NCBI GenBank assembly: GCA_020343615.1
Contig: CP070803.1
Coordinates: 143,686-207,685 of the forward strand
From: Candidatus Woesearchaeota archaeon
Lineage (GTDB): Archaea; Nanobdellota; Nanobdellia; UBA10117; GCA-020343615
Direction: 5' to 3'
DNA: 64,000 nt
This document shows, in pieces, positions 18,224 through 52,877 of the stretch. The notes under the pieces are model-generated. The model worked only from the letters and a program-made list of their open reading frames with translations. It had not been told where the DNA came from and did no database searches. A program made the translations under genes and the position numbers. The stretch's first letter is position 1, and each line of letters opens with the position of its first letter.

Positions 18224-18322
18224 TGCAGGAGGCAGGGTTTGAACCTGCGAAGGCACTAAGCCACGTGGTTTCTCATAAGAAGAACTTGAGCCACGCCCTT
18301 TTGACCACTCAGGCACTCCTGC
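18224..18322 (-). tRNA. tRNA-Leu(CAA) with a 15-nt intron at the canonical 37/38 position
   Basis: Hand-folded as acceptor GCAGGAG/CTCCTGC, anticodon stem CGTGG/CCACG, loop CTCAAG-[TTCTTCTTATGAGAA]-A, a long variable arm (GGC-TTAGT-GCC) and T-arm GCAGG-TTCAAAC-CCTGC. Confidence 0.7.
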
Positions 18323-20899: not shown

Positions 20900-21160
20900 T
20901 CACTTTAACTGTATTACTTGAAAACCGTATTTATATATATCTTCTTTTTTCCAGAATTCACAATCTTTAGTTTTTAGAACAAAGGATACTTCTTTCTTTA
21001 ATTCTCTGCCAGTATATTCTTTTGTTTTAGGGTCCCATTCTTTGAGTAGTAGAATATCGCCCTCCTTACAATCAAAATCTGCTAACCTAACATCAAAATT
21101 CTTTTTACCTTCTTTTACAAGTTCAAATAATTCAGGCCAAGCTTTCTTTTTTATTATCAT
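20900..21160 (-). CDS. Small PUA/ASCH-like beta-barrel protein (hypothetical)
   Basis: 86 aa with a pattern (WPELFELVKEGKK.FDVRL....KEGDILLLKEWD) reminiscent of ASCH/PUA-like domains. Low confidence. Confidence 0.35.
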   Translation of the reverse strand: MIIKKKAWPELFELVKEGKKNFDVRLADFDCKEGDILLLKEWDPKTKEYTGRELKKEVSFVLKTKDCEFWKKEDIYKYGFQVIQLK

Positions 21161-21710
21161 CTAATTTGTACTCCCAACCGGGTTCCCACTCTTTAGGTTG
21201 TTTTAAGCGCCAGTCTTCTCTGATTGCTTGTTCCCAGGTTTTCCCTTTAAGTATCACATCTAGTGCTAATTGTGGAGTTCTATGAGCTACTATTGCAGTA
21301 TTTTTTTTAGGATATTTTTCCAATAAGTCGCTTAGAAAGCTACGTACTCTTTTTTCTACATCCTTATAGCTTTCTCCATTAGGGAAAGGTTCTTCGATTT
21401 TATTAAAATCTATAGAATAAATTTCTTTTGAACTGCGTCTTTCTAGATCTCCGTAATTACACTCTCTTAATCTTTTATCTTGAATAATCGGAATTCCTCT
21501 TTTTTTGAAGGTTAATTCAGCTGAGTCTATTGCTCTCTTTAGATCTGAACAGAAAACAACATCAAATTGTTTATATTTAATTAATCCTTCTAATTTAATC
21601 GATTGTTTTTTCCCTAAATTTGATAATTCGGCAGGAGACCATCCTGTAGCTAGATTCTTTTTATTATCTTTAGTGGTTCCGTGCACAAAGTAAGTGATAT
21701 TAACTACCAT
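21132..21710 (-). CDS. Histidine phosphatase superfamily (phosphoglycerate mutase-like) protein
   Basis: A VHGTT motif (RHG-type phospho-His motif) near the N-terminus, and a conserved His later (AIVAHRT). The start was trimmed to the Met at 21710 because the longer ORF runs through the tRNA-Glu gene. Confidence 0.6.
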   Translation of the reverse strand: MVVNITYFVHGTTKDNKKNLATGWSPAELSNLGKKQSIKLEGLIKYKQFDVVFCSDLKRAIDSAELTFKKRGIPIIQDKRLRECNYGDLERRSSKEIYSIDFNKIEEPFPNGESYKDVEKRVRSFLSDLLEKYPKKNTAIVAHRTPQLALDVILKGKTWEQAIREDWRLKQPKEWEPGWEYKLDDNKKESLA

Positions 21711-21721
21711 ATTAACATAAA

Positions 21722-21828
21722 TGCCCCCGACGGGATTCGAACCCGTGTCCATGGCTCGAAAGGCCATAATGACTTGCCCTCCTTTCAATTTCTCGAAAAA
21801 GAGTTTGGCCGGACTACACCACAGGGGC
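21722..21828 (-). tRNA. tRNA-Glu(TTC) with an intron of about 33 nt at a non-canonical position in the D-loop/D-stem
   Basis: Hand-folded as acceptor GCCCCTG/CGGGGGC, anticodon arm ATGGC-CTTTCGA-GCCAT, variable loop GGAC and T-arm ACGGG-TTCGAAT-CCCGT. The 5' part TGGTGTAGTCCGGCCAA...CATT matches an archaeal tRNA-Glu D-arm only after removing an internal insert. Confidence 0.6.
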
Positions 21829-21880
21829 ATTAAAGTTACTATTATTTATCGGGTTTTTAAATGTTTTGAAAAGCAAAAAG

Positions 21881-22023
21881 TGGGCGAGCGGAGATTTGAA
21901 CTCCGGACTTCCAGCATTTACTGTCTCTGGTTAGCTTAGACCTTCTCTAGCGAGAACAGGTCATATAAGACTTACGCGGAGTTTAAGCTCCTCAGCGCTC
22001 TAACCAGACTAAGCTACCCGCCC
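21881..22023 (-). tRNA. Intron-containing tRNA, isotype unresolved (143 nt; probably two or more introns)
   Basis: The ends are clear: acceptor GGGCGGG/CTCGCCC, D-arm TA-GCTT-AGTCTGGTTA-GAGC, T-arm CGGAG-TTCAAAT-CTCCG. The interior has long-range complementarity (GTCTGGTTAG with CTAACCAGAGAC), and I could not place the anticodon loop by hand. Confidence 0.5.
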
Positions 22024-23310
22024 ATATATTGCTTTATTTATCTCATCAGCTAAGTTATCCTTTTTAAAGGTTACGACATAATAATCACTGTACTTAAAAC
22101 ATAAATTTTTAGGTTTATTATTAGAAAAAGCAGTAGCTGTACTACTATAATCAAATATAATAGACATTATTTTAACATTAGAGCTTCTCTTTAGAATATA
22201 TGCATAAGTAGCATGTTTATATAATTGATAAAGTAAGGACCCTCTAGAGTTACAATACGATACTAAAACGGCAATATCTGTATTATTTATTCTAAATAGA
22301 TTATCACTTACATAATAAAACCCGAATGGAGATTTGAATACCTCTTTACCTAGGGGAGATAATCCTAACTTAAATAATATAGAATTTACAAATTGTTCGT
22401 AGTCATTTATTAATCCTTTTTCTTTATATGCTTGTGTTTTAGATATCTCGCTCTTTATTTTTAATTCTTTTCTTACGTCTGAAAATAATTTTTCCTTTAA
22501 TTTTTTTACTGTATTTTTATTTAATATGTCTAAAAAGTATTTTCTTCTTTGTTGTAAATTTGTTAATATAAATATATTATTTTCTAATAAAAACGCTGCT
22601 AAATCCTTTAATCTTTTTTTAGATCTTACAGTGACAATAAATGGAAAGTCTTTACCGTATTTTTTATCTAAAAAATTTCTTTTTTCTAAAAAATCTGTAA
22701 ATCCTCTAAAAGCATTAATTGTTGTTTCTTCTACAGCAATAGGTTTATTTTTATAAAAATAAACGAAATCAAAGTTATAATCTTTGGATAAAAAGTAGTT
22801 GGTTTTAAAATTAAGTTCTAGTTCTGTGTTTTGATTCGCTACTTCTCTTTCTTGTTCTGTAAAATATTCTATATTTTTTACTTTTTTGTTTCCGCCTTTC
22901 TTTCCATTACTACTCTGTTTTATTCTTCTTTCTAAAGTCCACATTTTGTTTGTAATTTTTGCTCCTTTGAGGCCTATTTTAGAGAAGAAATTATTTCCAT
23001 ATTTTTTATATAAGGTATCTACCGCTTTATTCCTATTAGAATTTTTAAAATTAGATTTAGAATATCTTCTGTCTTTTATTATTCTCCCTTGCCTTAATAG
23101 TTCCTGCTTTTTATCTTTTGATAATTCTGCTGTTAATTTATCAAAAATGTACATTTTAAGGCTTAGTCTACCATTACGATAAGAGGATCTTAATGTAGAT
23201 TCACCAATATTTAATTCTCTTGATAATTCTTTCCAAGATAAGCTTTTTTTGTTCTTGTAATGTTCAATTAATGATTTTTGAATCTCTTTAGGAAGTTTTA
23301 TTCTTTTCAT
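22009..23310 (-). CDS. Lys-rich hypothetical protein (433 aa) with an N-terminal HTH
   Basis: N-terminal SLSWKELSRELNIGESTLRSSYRNGR looks like an HTH. The stop codon lies within the first 15 nt of the adjacent tRNA gene. No catalytic motif recognised. Confidence 0.5.
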   Translation of the reverse strand: MKRIKLPKEIQKSLIEHYKNKKSLSWKELSRELNIGESTLRSSYRNGRLSLKMYIFDKLTAELSKDKKQELLRQGRIIKDRRYSKSNFKNSNRNKAVDTLYKKYGNNFFSKIGLKGAKITNKMWTLERRIKQSSNGKKGGNKKVKNIEYFTEQEREVANQNTELELNFKTNYFLSKDYNFDFVYFYKNKPIAVEETTINAFRGFTDFLEKRNFLDKKYGKDFPFIVTVRSKKRLKDLAAFLLENNIFILTNLQQRRKYFLDILNKNTVKKLKEKLFSDVRKELKIKSEISKTQAYKEKGLINDYEQFVNSILFKLGLSPLGKEVFKSPFGFYYVSDNLFRINNTDIAVLVSYCNSRGSLLYQLYKHATYAYILKRSSNVKIMSIIFDYSSTATAFSNNKPKNLCFKYSDYYVVTFKKDNLADEINKAIYGRVA

Positions 23311-49281: not shown

Positions 49282-50277
49282 ATGAAAGCCCTAGCTTTAT
49301 TTTCAGGAGGTTTGGACTCTATTCTAGCGATTAAACTATTACAAGAACAAGGTGTTGGGGTAATAGCTTATCACTTTACTTCTCCAGTTTTAACTGAGGA
49401 TCTTAAAGACATTAAAAAAACAGCTAAGGAATTAGGAGTTAAGCTAATTATTGAAGAAGCTGACTCAGATTACTTCAGAATGTTAAGAAAGCCTAAACAT
49501 GGCTACGGAAGTGCTATTAACCCTTGTATTGACTGTAGGATATTTGTATTTAAAAAAGCAAAGAAGGTAGCTAAAAAAGAAGGTGCTAAATTCATTGCTA
49601 CAGGAGAAGTTCTTGGAGAAAGGCCCATGACACAGGTTAAACGGTCTTTAGAGCTGATTGAAGAGGAAGCTGGCTTAAAAAACAAGCTATTAAGGCCCTT
49701 ATCTGCGAAATTGCTTCTAGAAACTGAAGCTGAGAGTAAGAAGTGGGTCAATAGAAAAGGATTTTTAGATATAGAAGGTAGAAATAGAAAAAAGCAGTTA
49801 GAATTAGCCAAAAAATACAAATTAAAGGACTATCCTACGCCTGCTGGTGGCTGTTTACTAACTGATAAAGATTTTGCACCTCGAGTAGCTGATTTATTTA
49901 AGAATAATAAAAGAATTACTAATAAGGATTTTCTTTTGATAAAATTCGGGAGACATTTTAGGTATAAAAACAGTAAAATCATTGTAGGTCGTGATGAAAA
50001 AGATAATGAACAATTAATAAATCTTAAGAATAAAACAGACTTTATCCTTGAAGTCTCTAATTATGGGAGCCCAATAACTATTTTACAGGGAAAAGATATA
50101 GAATTCGCAGCTAAATTAACCGCAAGATATTCTGATGCTAAAGGAAAGAAAATAGAGGTTAAATACGGAAAACAGAAACCTATTAAAAGCTTATTTGTCT
50201 CTCCTGCAACACAAGAACAGGTAGATAAATACATGATACGCCGAGATAGCTCAGTTGGTAGAGCGCCAGTCTCATAA
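49282..50277 (+). CDS. PP-loop ATPase of the MnmA/ThiI tRNA-thiolation family
   Basis: SGGLDS PP-loop. NPCIDCRIFVFKK resembles the MnmA/ThiI catalytic-Cys motif NPxxxCNxxIKF. A second Cys lies in PAGGCLLTD. The 3' end overlaps the tRNA-Met gene by 38 nt. Confidence 0.55.
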   Translation: MKALALFSGGLDSILAIKLLQEQGVGVIAYHFTSPVLTEDLKDIKKTAKELGVKLIIEEADSDYFRMLRKPKHGYGSAINPCIDCRIFVFKKAKKVAKKEGAKFIATGEVLGERPMTQVKRSLELIEEEAGLKNKLLRPLSAKLLLETEAESKKWVNRKGFLDIEGRNRKKQLELAKKYKLKDYPTPAGGCLLTDKDFAPRVADLFKNNKRITNKDFLLIKFGRHFRYKNSKIIVGRDEKDNEQLINLKNKTDFILEVSNYGSPITILQGKDIEFAAKLTARYSDAKGKKIEVKYGKQKPIKSLFVSPATQEQVDKYMIRRDSSVGRAPVS

Positions 50278-50312
50278 GCTGGATGTCGCGGGTTCAAATC
50301 CCGCTCTCGGCA
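50240..50312 (+). tRNA. tRNA-Met(CAT), elongator type
   Basis: Hand-folded as acceptor GCCGAGA/TCTCGGC (G1:C72, so not an initiator), anticodon arm CCAGT-CTCATAA-GCTGG and T-arm GCGGG-TTCAAAT-CCCGC. Confidence 0.85.
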
Positions 50313-50690: not shown

Positions 50691-51878
50691 ATGCCTGAAA
50701 GTATTCTAAAGAAAGCTGGTGGATTTGTAAAAGACTCTGTTCTACTTTTAAGACCTTTACGTAAAAAAGAAAAATGGGATATTGGGAGATTGGATACATA
50801 TCTTTCTCCGGAAGAATATAGGAAAGTAAAGGGGGCATTAAAACAAGGTAAGGTTAAAATTGAACTATTAAAGTTGGGTTTTTCATTTTTAATCTCTGGA
50901 AAAGATGTTTTGCCTCGCTTAGTTTCTGAAGTTGAGTTTTTTCAAAAAATAAATAACAAGATAGAAAAAAAGTACTATGATAAATTATTTGAAGAATTTT
51001 CTCCACGAGCTTATGATGTTCTATTTCATTATTTGGCTTCAGATGTCATGTATCTCGCTGATCTAAAAAGAGCAGCAATACTTCAGTTATTCACAGAATT
51101 TCCTCTTCATGTTCTCATTATTGGTGAGTCAGATAGTGGAAAGTCTAAAATTCTGAATTCTGTCCGAACATTAGCGCCAAAATCAACTTATGGTATTGGA
51201 TCTTCAATATCTAGCAGCGGTCTAACACTATCTGTACAGGGGAAGAATGTGAAACCTGGTATTCTTCCTAGAGCTGATCAGGGTGTTTGCTGTATTTCTG
51301 AATTAAATCTAATTAAGAAGAATGAACTTTCGCAGCTTGTTTCTGTCATGGATAAAGGTTACATTAAATATGATAAAGGCGGTGCGAGTATTAAAAAAGA
51401 TGCTAGAACTAAAATACTAGCTACAGCTGAGACTAAAAAAGGTGATTTTAAATCATATTCTCTTTCACAGATAAAGAAACAGATACCGTTTAACTCTTCG
51501 TTTTTATCTAAATTTCATTTAATATTCATTACTAAAAAGCCTAGTAAAAATGAATTTAGAATTATTGCTGATACAATCATAGATGAGTCTGTTAAAAAGG
51601 ATATAAGTAAAGATGAAATTGAATTTATTAAACGATATATTGACTATAGTTCTGGAATTAGAGTAAAACTTCCTAAGAAATTAGCTAAACAAGTAGATGA
51701 ATTCGTTGTTGGTTTAAAAGATATGGAAAAAAAGTTACCTTATAACATTTCCTCTAAAACAGTTGAAGGGATTGTTTCCTTAATCAAGGCATCTGCAAGG
51801 TCTGAATTTAGAGGAGAAGTAGAAAATAAGGACTTAGAAAGAGTTTTTTCAATAGTCCGGAGCGCACTTCAAATATAA
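50691..51878 (+). CDS. Short, degenerate MCM-like AAA+ protein (395 aa) lacking the MCM N-terminal domain
   Basis: Walker A IIGESDSGKSKIL. The segment GVCCISELNLIKKNELSQLVSVMDKGYIKYDKGGASIKKDARTKILATAE aligns with the MCM Walker B/sensor/arginine-finger block (GVCCIDEFDKM...AIHEAMEQQTISIAKAGI...SARCSVLAAAN), but the Walker B Asp is replaced by Ser. Confidence 0.5.
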   Translation: MPESILKKAGGFVKDSVLLLRPLRKKEKWDIGRLDTYLSPEEYRKVKGALKQGKVKIELLKLGFSFLISGKDVLPRLVSEVEFFQKINNKIEKKYYDKLFEEFSPRAYDVLFHYLASDVMYLADLKRAAILQLFTEFPLHVLIIGESDSGKSKILNSVRTLAPKSTYGIGSSISSSGLTLSVQGKNVKPGILPRADQGVCCISELNLIKKNELSQLVSVMDKGYIKYDKGGASIKKDARTKILATAETKKGDFKSYSLSQIKKQIPFNSSFLSKFHLIFITKKPSKNEFRIIADTIIDESVKKDISKDEIEFIKRYIDYSSGIRVKLPKKLAKQVDEFVVGLKDMEKKLPYNISSKTVEGIVSLIKASARSEFRGEVENKDLERVFSIVRSALQI

Positions 51879-51913: not shown

Positions 51914-52659
51914 GCCTCGGTAGCTCAGTCGGCAAGAGCGACGGAGGGTGAAAGTTGATATGATACAACTTAATGAACGCGTTGCAGAAGAAACTGGTAT
52001 TCACATTGGTGATGGTAGCATGAGCATATATAACGGTATACCTTGTTATACTGTTGCATGTAATGCTAACAAAGAAAGAGAATACGTTGAAAAATATATA
52101 GCTCCATTAATAAAAGAAGTATATGGAATAAAACCGAAGTTAAGAATGTGGTCAGAAGGAGCATATGGATTTAGGATTGTTTCTAGAGAAGTGATAGAAT
52201 TTAAAAATAAAGAATTGGGTCTTCCATTAGGACCTAAAAAAGAAATAGAAATACCTTTTAAAATAATAAAAAATATGAACTTAGCTAAAAAATGTATACG
52301 TGGACTCTTTGATACAGATGGTTGTGTCTATATTGAAGAAAAGAAAACAGGTCCTTACCCTAGAATAGAATTACACCTAAGTTCAAAAAAAGTAGTAAAG
52401 CAGGTTAGTGAAATATTAAAGGATCTAGGATTAACTTGTTCAATTTGGGAACATAAATATCCTAATAAAAAGAATTGGTCAAACACGTATACAGTGTGTA
52501 CTCGAGGAACAAAAAATTTAAACATTTGGATGAAACAAATAGGATTCAAAAATCCTAAAAACATAAAAAAAGTATTAGCTTTCACCGGTCGAATCTTGTA
52601 TGCCGAAAGGAGTTTGGCCAAGTAAACCGTAGGTCGTGGGTTCGATTCCCACCCGGGGC
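51914..52659 (+). tRNA. tRNA gene (Thr-like D-arm and U73; isotype unresolved) interrupted by an intron of roughly 0.67 kb that encodes a LAGLIDADG endonuclease
   Basis: 5' exon GCCTCGG-TA-GCTC-AGTCGGCAA-GAGC-G-ACGGA.. and 3' exon ..GTAA-ACCGT-AGGTC-GTGGG-TTCGATT-CCCAC-CCGGGGC-T pair into a 7-bp acceptor stem (GCCTCGG/CCGGGGC) with a canonical T-arm. An oligo-T tract follows. I could not define the exact splice junctions or anticodon by hand. Confidence 0.55.
51948..52625 (+). CDS. LAGLIDADG homing endonuclease (double-motif, monomeric type) encoded inside the tRNA intron
   Basis: Two LAGLIDADG motifs: GIHIGDGSMSI and IRGLFDTDGCVYI. The ORF runs from the 5' splice region into the 3' exon, as is typical of intron-encoded HEs. 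Confidence 0.75.
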   Translation: MKVDMIQLNERVAEETGIHIGDGSMSIYNGIPCYTVACNANKEREYVEKYIAPLIKEVYGIKPKLRMWSEGAYGFRIVSREVIEFKNKELGLPLGPKKEIEIPFKIIKNMNLAKKCIRGLFDTDGCVYIEEKKTGPYPRIELHLSSKKVVKQVSEILKDLGLTCSIWEHKYPNKKNWSNTYTVCTRGTKNLNIWMKQIGFKNPKNIKKVLAFTGRILYAERSLAK

Positions 52660-52749
52660 TTTTTATAGTATTTTAAAAATAAAGGATATGTTCCTAAATC
52701 TAAAGAAATAGAAAGATTTTTTAAGGCTACTAAAATCTGAAGATGTAGT

Positions 52750-52877
52750 GGGCCGGTGGTCTAGCTGGTTAACTCTTCCAGAACTTTTGTGGGAGAGGCC
52801 AAATGACGCAGCCCTTACATGTTCTTAAAAAGGGCTAAGATAGGCTGAGGTCGGGAGTTCGAATCTCCCCTGGCCCA
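52750..52877 (+). tRNA. tRNA-Val(TAC) with two introns: a 22-nt canonical 37/38 intron and an intron of about 33 nt in the D-loop
   Basis: Hand-folded as acceptor GGGCCGG/CTGGCCC, anticodon stem CAGCC/GGCTG with loop CTTACA-[TGTTCTTAAAAAGGGCTAAGAT]-A, and T-arm GGGAG-TTCGAAT-CTCCC. The D-arm GTCT...TGAC-G closes only if an internal insert of about 33 nt is removed. Confidence 0.65.

Follow-up and report, generated by a model that had tools for sequence, protein, structure and literature searches.

A 64,000-nucleotide (nt) stretch of contig CP070803.1 (assembly GCA_020343615.1), from a metagenome-assembled genome (MAG) of Candidatus Woesearchaeota in the DPANN superphylum, was analyzed and is referred to here as the window. 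With a probability of about 90%, positions 21722 to 22023 of the window hold a pair of functional archaeal tRNA genes that contain introns of the bulge-helix-bulge (BHB) type, one intron in tRNA-Glu(UUC) and three in tRNA-Ile(UAU). An earlier note on this DNA had described these positions as a cluster of multi-intron tRNAs with introns in the D-loop. The intron-bearing tRNAs are real, but tRNA-Glu carries a single intron and the introns of its 143-nt neighbor are located in the anticodon arm and the variable loop. The proposal of non-canonical and multiple archaeal introns was supported by BHB motifs at the inserts and by the canonical cloverleaves obtained after their removal. The coordinates of all features are listed in Table 1.

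The splice junctions were assigned using a BHB rule in which two 3-nt bulges enclose a 4-bp helix and each bulge is cut 3' of its second nucleotide. The rule was calibrated on tRNA-Leu of the window, which has a canonical intron, and all possible junctions were scored. Nine introns were identified in five of the 11 tRNA genes of the window (Glu, Ile, Val, Leu, and Thr), five of them at non-canonical positions. The bulges are in register in all nine, and the central helix contains 4 of 4 pairs (3 of 4 for Glu). For eight introns, shuffled sequences equaled or exceeded the BHB score in 0 to 22 of 5000 trials; the ninth, a 649-nt intron in tRNA-Thr, was judged by comparison. When the spliced sequences were submitted to ARAGORN, Glu-ttc (75 nt), Ile-tat (75 nt), Val-tac (74 nt), Thr-tgt (74 nt), and Leu-caa were returned with intact stems.

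The tRNA-Glu gene scores 50.5 bits against the Rfam tRNA model, which absorbs a 40-nt insertion in the D-loop. The D-arm had been thought to close only upon removal of an insert of about 33 nt, and this insert was identified as a 32-nt BHB intron between A21 and U22, at the border of the D-loop and the D-stem. The intron borders read GGCCAA/ACUCUU...GGCAAG/UCAU, where the slash denotes the splice junction. The central helix is formed by GGCC and GGCA, the 3-nt bulges are AAA and AGU, and the inner helix is 8 bp in length. This BHB motif was recovered in the minimum-free-energy structure calculated with RNAfold. A mechanically called open reading frame (ORF) of 232 amino acids (aa) at 21132-21830 on the minus strand, encoding a histidine phosphatase (Pfam His_Phos_1), spans the tRNA-Glu gene. 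The true start of the phosphatase gene is most likely near 21701, and the overlap with tRNA-Glu an artifact of ORF calling.

The 143-nt gene scores 39 bits against the Rfam tRNA model in a local scan, with an 83-nt insertion in the anticodon arm. Every way of leaving a 17-nt anticodon arm was enumerated, and each junction was scored for a BHB motif. A single solution has a BHB motif at every junction, and it contains three introns and yields tRNA-Ile(UAU), with exons at nt 1-31, 53-60, 92-99, and 116-143 of the precursor. The spliced product is a 75-nt cloverleaf in which the anticodon stem, CUGGU paired with ACCAG, is entirely Watson-Crick and the variable loop, AGGUC, is of the usual kind. 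The predicted splice junctions are CUG/GUCUUAUA/AACCAGAG/GUC. The isotype, which the earlier note had left to be confirmed, is assigned as Ile(UAU) by the enumeration and by the ARAGORN call on the spliced product, and the roughly 70 extra nt reported inside the gene correspond to 68 nt in three BHB introns. A competing solution, in which removal of two 34-nt introns would give tRNA-Glu(CUC), was rejected; it provides a 5-bp stem but no BHB motif (at most 3 central and 2 flanking pairs).

The central helix has 4 of 4 pairs at each of the three tRNA-Ile introns. Intron 1 (GCGC with GCGU) has an outer helix of 3 bp and an inner helix of 4 bp, and 1 of 5000 shuffles was as good. Intron 2 has an outer helix of 2 bp and an inner helix of 5 bp (0 of 5000 shuffles). 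Intron 3 (CCAG with CUGG) has the bulges AG/A and AA/G (14 of 5000 shuffles). The BHB motifs of introns 1 and 2 were recovered by RNAfold. The long-range complementarity between exons and introns that had been noted for this gene is explained in part by the BHB helices; the remainder is a 9-bp pairing of the D-loop that appears in the minimum-free-energy fold. In this pairing the D-loop sequence UCUGGUUAG is complementary to the end of intron 2 together with exon 3, CUAACCAGA (21999-22008 with 21926-21934, or nt 16-24 with 90-98 of the tRNA-Ile precursor), and it dominates the minimum-free-energy fold of the precursor. The complementarity might trap the precursor in a misfolded state, or it might arise by coincidence from the CUGGU repeat.

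The order of the genes is conserved at a related locus, L145, where a homologue of a 433-aa ORF is followed by tRNA-Ile(UAU) and tRNA-Glu(UUC), as in the window. Alignment of L145 with the window gives clean gaps of exactly 32 nt, the tRNA-Glu intron, and 16 nt, the 45/46 intron of tRNA-Ile, where the L145 gene reads CCAGAG/GUC. Since these gaps coincide with the predicted introns, the junctions at Glu 21/22 and Ile 45/46 are fixed to the nucleotide. The L145 tRNA-Ile retains the canonical intron and a 29/30 intron of 15 nt, which is orthologous to intron 1 of the window gene and has the same ends. The comparison of the two aligned loci shows a recent gain or loss, between close relatives, of the introns at Glu 21/22 and Ile 45/46. 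Chance is excluded as the source of the motifs by the shuffles, the ARAGORN calls on the spliced products, and the L145 gaps together.

The D-loop intron of tRNA-Glu was subsequently examined across species. Among 185,579 species genomes scanned for a tRNA-Glu with an insert after G18-G19, 54 loci were obtained, of which 43 are archaeal tRNA-Glu genes from 43 species representatives. Their titles name Woesearchaeota, Nanoarchaeota, one Hadesarchaea, and many "uncultured Methanosarcinales" MAGs. With the window gene included (44 in total), the intron begins directly after G19 in 28 genes and is displaced by +1 in 3, by +2 in 6, and by +4 in 7, the last being the register of the window, which therefore recurs in six other species. 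The central helix has 4 of 4 pairs in 37 of the 44 genes. A 4/4 central helix combined with an inner helix of 3 bp or more is found in 34 of the 44, compared with 0.1 expected from shuffles (maximum of 2 in 200 rounds).

Covariation was counted in the commonest register only, which has 24 distinct junctions, because MAFFT aligned the mixed registers by sequence and not by structure. In this register 99% of the cells are paired, and all four of the inner-helix pairs change on both sides. Changes on both sides were counted in 54 cells, compared with 19.3 in shuffles (0 of 500). The covariation score is 0.76, compared with 0.20 in shuffles (0 of 500), and the signal is destroyed when the partner strand is slid. 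As judged from these aligned junctions, compensatory substitutions maintain the BHB motif across species, and the motif is thus under selection. Introns in the T-loop of tRNA-Glu and tRNA-Thr were also read by eye in several of the loci L015-L045 and in L001 (approximately 1150-1265).

The proposed processing of the transcripts is as follows. In the precursor RNA, each exon-intron junction would fold into the 4-bp helix flanked by two 3-nt bulges. The splicing endonuclease EndA would be expected to cleave between the second and third bulge nucleotides on each strand, and an RtcB-type ligase would then join the exons to give the predicted 75-nt tRNAs. The roles of EndA and RtcB are taken from known archaeal tRNA splicing. 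The tRNA-Val, tRNA-Leu, and tRNA-Thr genes of the window are built in the same manner.

Table 1. Positions of the intron-bearing tRNA genes, their introns, and associated ORFs in the window
Feature	Position	Strand	Description
tRNA-Leu(CAA)	18224-18322	-	found by our own acceptor/T-arm scan
tRNA-Leu intron	18270-18284	-	15 nt, canonical
tRNA-Glu(UUC)	21722-21828	-	107 nt; exons 21805-21828, 21722-21772; Rfam tRNA and ARAGORN on spliced product
tRNA-Glu intron	21773-21804	-	32 nt, BHB, position 21/22
tRNA-Ile(UAU)	21881-22023	-	143 nt; exons 21993-22023, 21964-21971, 21925-21932, 21881-21908
tRNA-Ile intron 1	21972-21992	-	21 nt, 29/30, strict BHB
tRNA-Ile intron 2	21933-21963	-	31 nt, canonical 37/38
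tRNA-Ile intron 3	21909-21924	-	16 nt, 45/46
433-aa ORF	22009-23310	-	no family assigned; TAG stop is nt 13-15 of tRNA-Ile(UAU)
tRNA-Thr(UGU)	51914-52660	+	exons 51914-51944 (31 nt), 52594-52600 (7 nt, UCUUGUA), 52625-52660
tRNA-Thr intron 1	51945-52593	+	649 nt, 30/31, BHB
tRNA-Thr intron 2	52601-52624	+	24 nt, canonical 37/38
LAGLIDADG ORF	51960-52625	+	221 aa (ATG start) or 225 aa (GTG start, 51948); within tRNA-Thr intron 1 and on through exon 2 and intron 2
tRNA-Val(UAC)	52750-52877	+	spliced product 74 nt
tRNA-Val intron 1	52772-52803	+	32 nt, 21/22
tRNA-Val intron 2	52820-52841	+	22 nt, canonical 37/38

The tRNA-Val gene had been said to share the D-loop intron position and to contain a canonical intron of 22 nt, and both introns were located by BHB scoring. 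The central helix of the D-loop intron is UGGU paired with GCCA (4 of 4) and the inner helix is 8 bp; 4 of 5000 shuffles were as good, and the motif appears in the RNAfold minimum-free-energy fold. The canonical intron has a strict BHB motif with a 4/4 central helix, an outer helix of 5 bp, and an inner helix of 6 bp (0 of 5000 shuffles). An alternative register for the D-loop intron, with a 30-nt intron and a 76-nt product, was set aside because it scores slightly lower and because the validated junction of Glu favors the other register by analogy. In tRNA-Glu and tRNA-Val alike, the D-loop intron is 32 nt in length, is found at 21/22, and begins with ACUCUU. The two introns are identical at 15 of 32 positions (87 of 10,000 shuffles as good). 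The likeness could be due to transposition of an intron or merely to shared BHB constraints, which confound the comparison. The BHB motif of tRNA-Leu has a 4/4 central helix and an outer helix of 6 bp.

These genes are poorly visible to standard tools, as the earlier note had anticipated. ARAGORN without introns reports six tRNAs in the window, none of them within 21722-22023, and misses five of the 11 genes. The Rfam tRNA model misses two of the 11 even with lax filters, and four of the five intron-containing genes escape both ARAGORN and Rfam at default filters. The tRNA-Leu gene is among these and reaches 46.4 bits only with lax filters, and for tRNA-Val no match to the covariance model was found in the window even with lax filters. 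Default ARAGORN and the Rfam gathering scan were dropped as detectors since their sensitivity was too low. Our own scan for a T-arm with a complementary acceptor stem recovered tRNA-Glu, the 143-nt gene, and tRNA-Val, and provided the new tRNA-Leu candidate. When such tRNA genes are missed, the decoding capacity and the completeness of a genome are misjudged.

The archaeal host is supported by the Candidatus Woesearchaeota source and by archaeal housekeeping genes among the ORFs of the window (EF-1alpha, EF-2, ProRS, SerRS, a Rad51/RecA-family RadA-like protein, and NMD3). The G+C content of the window is approximately 33%. A 331-aa ORF at 49282-50277 on the plus strand has a PP-loop ATPase-like N-terminus and an NFACT-R_2 domain. 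This ORF has no stop codon before tRNA-Met (50240-50312) and terminates at the UAA in the anticodon loop of the tRNA, for an overlap of 38 nt.

The tRNA-Thr(UGU) gene was unseen by all of the detectors, with only its T-arm giving weak matches to tmRNA models, and its exons were located by hand. The first intron contains an ORF that matches Pfam LAGLIDADG_3 (E = 1.2e-12) and is 100% identical to NCBI JSW73_01190. The two LAGLIDADG motifs are G-D-G-S (D18) and D-T-D-G (D120), and both, with their Asp residues, are invariant in 40 homologues. By profile, the closest relatives of known structure are endonucleases of inteins and PDB 2dch, an enzyme from an archaeal rRNA intron. The reading frame continues across exon 2 and intron 2, and the base at which it ends is the first of exon 3. 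A 395-aa protein (50691-51878, plus strand) with the MCM P-loop and lid domains only, and without the N-terminal MCM domain, is encoded directly 5' of the tRNA-Thr gene.

The BHB motif at Thr 30/31 has a 4/4 central helix (CGAC with GUCG), and the helix joining the ends of the intron contains 13 of 14 pairs. A score for contiguous helices under-rates this intron (501 of 5000 shuffles) because of a G.G mismatch, and a comparison was used instead. The motif is kept, with covarying helices, in the tRNA-Thr of L065 and L077, with an offset of 1 nt in L001, and in the tRNA-Asn(GUU) of L069. Given the paired ends, the 4/4 central helix, the same architecture in relatives, and the lack of a group I or group II signal, intron 1 of tRNA-Thr is a BHB intron like those of archaeal rRNA genes, with a tRNA gene as its host.

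Several observations weigh against two functional, spliced genes at 21722-22023. The central helix of the Glu motif has 3 of 4 pairs only, the exception being a G.A that is conserved, and the D-loop and 45/46 introns have a weak outer helix or none. The Glu, D-loop, and 45/46 motifs are thus relaxed and would need an enzyme of broad specificity, and neither EndA nor RtcB was found among the 20 window ORFs scanned. Orthologues of tRNA-Val were sought among the fetched loci and none were found, which leaves Val without comparative support. The mature spliced tRNAs are predictions from the DNA sequence. The missed or reduced scores from standard detectors would also fit decaying tRNA pseudogenes with junk insertions that give rise to no mature tRNA. 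Decay is very unlikely, given that every stem of every spliced product is intact, that the inserts lie precisely within BHB motifs, and that the motif is kept by compensatory change in 43 species. The orthologous Ile-Glu locus in L145 is conserved with intact exons, and no second copy of these anticodons was found within the window by ARAGORN, Rfam, or our own scan.

Splicing in trans of split or permuted genes, as in Nanoarchaeum, or a chimeric assembly might be considered for tRNA-Thr, whose exons lie 650 nt apart and of which only the 3' half was visible at first. That half had been taken as a candidate split tRNA, which was dropped after the 5' exon was found at 51914. All of the exons follow one another in the correct order on a single strand, the termini of the intron pair across the ORF, and the architecture recurs in independent ENA, JGI, and Logan assemblies, so that a split gene or a chimera is highly improbable. 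The predicted homing endonuclease within the tRNA-Thr intron could equally recall a self-splicing intron or a transposable element, since group I introns that encode homing endonucleases are found in bacterial tRNA genes, and archaeal rRNA genes also contain group I introns (PMC6125680). This explanation is scarcely credible for the present genes. The short introns, at 15 to 32 nt, are far below the size of a ribozyme, the 649-nt intron is nearly all ORF, and no Rfam group I or group II match was found in the window at E ≤ 0.5. The introns have no further copies in the window, and a BHB motif is present at every junction. Functional tRNA genes with BHB introns are thus the preferred reading of the flagged positions.

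A tRNA-Ile(UAU) has been reported in only two of 167 archaeal genomes (PMC6000648). It was found here in the window and in the relatives L011 (1275-1391), L062 (2865-2971), L025 (minus strand), and L145 (2239-2365), and in all four relatives the gene contains a canonical intron homologous to intron 2 of the window gene. A tRNA-Ile(UAU) with the canonical intron alone adjoins tRNA-Glu in L011 and L062, and in L025 it is on the opposite strand. The presence of this gene in several relatives bears on the reading of AUA without agmatidine, and it suggests that the lineage of the window may decode AUA without agmatidine and TiaS. The tRNA-Ile(UAU) genes of two further loci, L146 and L147, when read by eye, contain extra introns in the D-arm and possibly at 9/10.

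The endonuclease found in tRNA-Thr belongs to a family that is linked to tRNA genes. A protein search provided 529 LAGLIDADG homologues, and more than 500 metagenome loci were obtained. In total, 85 endonuclease loci from metagenomes and genomes (drawn from L001-L010 and L065-L144) were examined, with tRNA genes called by pattern matching. In 67 of the 85 a tRNA gene abuts the 3' end of the endonuclease gene or encloses it. The linked tRNA typically begins 22-26 nt past the stop codon of the endonuclease, or else the stop codon is inside the tRNA. The endonucleases cluster by partner tRNA in a neighbor-joining tree. For Thr(UGU) the endonuclease is upstream of the tRNA in seven loci and in an intron in four, and for Asn(GUU) there is one locus of each type. 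The partner is Ile(GAU) in 33 loci with an upstream endonuclease, Arg(GCG) in six, and Leu(UAA) in four; an additional clade is convergent with a tRNA on the other strand, read as Ile(GAU) in one case (L072).

An intron at 30/31 is present in nearly all of the endonuclease-linked tRNA-Thr genes and in about one-third of the tRNA-Ile(GAU) genes. A general rule that this intron always protects the adjacent tRNA gene was discarded, as approximately 15 endonuclease-adjacent tRNA-Ile(GAU) genes lack an intron, as does one tRNA-Thr (L068). A conserved element, CACTGGACA...GCTTATAAA, is located about 60-90 nt 5' of the endonuclease start in four loci with a free-standing endonuclease linked to tRNA-Thr (L004, L005, L008, and L067), and it is probably a promoter plus another element. 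In L068 and L070 a common inverted repeat, CTCCAAAGTT...TTTGGAGG, is found instead.

A second family is represented by the 433-aa ORF that runs into tRNA-Ile(UAU). Only three homologues were found (L145, L146, and L147), each of which also runs into a tRNA-Ile(UAU) gene, and no sequence match was obtained in Pfam, PHROG, or the PDB. The AlphaFold model, calculated with four sequences, has a predicted local distance difference test (pLDDT) score of 73 and a predicted template modeling (pTM) score of 0.59. It contains an N-terminal helix-turn-helix followed by two alpha-beta-beta-beta-alpha-beta units. The best Foldseek matches are weak (E = 0.006-0.1) and are to the PD-(D/E)XK nucleases Can2, PspGI, NucS, and the R2 endonuclease domain. 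The motif FDFVY...VEE is invariant in the family, and the active-site lysine could not be assigned. The modeled fold offers a nuclease function as a lead and not as a result.

A tentative interpretation, to which we give slightly less than even odds, is that some BHB introns in the tRNA genes of DPANN archaea are mobilized by families of homing nucleases, each specific for a tRNA. The LAGLIDADG clades would each be committed to one tRNA gene, namely Thr(UGU), Asn(GUU), Ile(GAU), Arg(GCG), or Leu(UAA), and the 433-aa protein would be tied to Ile(UAU). If this is correct, endonuclease cleavage followed by gene conversion would provide a DNA-level route by which archaeal tRNA genes acquire non-canonical introns and these introns spread, and endonuclease-bearing BHB introns would extend from rRNA to tRNA genes. 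The mechanism by which archaeal tRNA introns spread was called unknown in a 2014 review (PMC4090602). In the literature searched, the coverage of which is incomplete and takes in few subscription journals, neither an archaeal tRNA intron with an endonuclease ORF nor a linkage between endonucleases and tRNA genes was found to be described. The endonuclease-encoding tRNA intron and the tRNA-locked nuclease families would make the spread of archaeal tRNA introns experimentally testable, and are potentially the weightier by-product of this work.

Non-canonical and multiple BHB introns are reportedly a feature of crenarchaeal (Thermoproteales) tRNA genes, as described by Marck and Grosjean in 2003 and by Sugahara et al. 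in 2008. The genes of the window resemble these in that every junction has a BHB motif, strict or relaxed, in that a gene may contain as many as three introns, and in the intron positions 29/30, 30/31, 37/38, and 45/46. They differ in their host, which is a mesophilic DPANN archaeon of 33% G+C. Introns at 29/30, 30/31, 45/46, and the D-arm sites 20/21 and 22/23, with up to three per gene, are known in Crenarchaeota and Nanoarchaeota (PMC4090602). The D-loop introns reported here are found at 21/22 in the window and at 19/20 in most relatives, and 20/21 and 22/23 are neighboring positions.

Within DPANN, Fujishima et al. (2011) are said to have described the epsilon2 EndA of ARMAN-2, and Randau et al. 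(2005) the split tRNAs of Nanoarchaeum; no split genes were seen in the window. More tRNA gene disruption was found in DPANN lineages with an L3-loop EndA by Kaneta et al. (2018), whose tRNA predictions took in one Woesearchaeota and one Pacearchaeota genome (PMC5829648). The superphylum is the same, but the genes of the window, the Glu D-loop family, and a three-intron tRNA-Ile(UAU) are not described in the portions of that paper that were read. Since disrupted tRNAs have already been reported in DPANN, the intron-bearing Glu and Ile genes are ordinary for archaea of this kind, though poorly annotated. The most interesting feature of the window is outside 21722-22023, in the endonuclease-carrying BHB intron of tRNA-Thr and the linkage of nucleases to tRNA genes.

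Endonucleases are also associated with tRNA genes in bacteria and phages. I-Ssp6803I is a PD-(D/E)XK enzyme from a group I intron of a cyanobacterial tRNA-fMet gene, and Bonocora and Shub have reportedly described collaborative homing by a free-standing endonuclease together with an intron. SegB of phage T4 is encoded within a phage tRNA cluster (PMC2330249). The arrangement is similar here in that the genes lie beside or inside tRNA genes, with members of one clade both 5' of the tRNA and intronic. It differs in the archaeal host and in the BHB introns, which would be spliced by proteins rather than as ribozymes. A close parallel to the tRNA-Thr intron is provided by the LAGLIDADG-encoding introns of archaeal rRNA genes (I-DmoI, I-PorI, and I-Tsp061I, the last being PDB 2dch), which are likewise bounded by BHB motifs and have termini that pair across the ORF. 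In contrast to these, the host gene here is a tRNA (Thr-UGU, or Asn-GUU in L069), the insertion site is 30/31, and the ORF extends beyond the intron, across the 7-nt exon and the intron that follows it.

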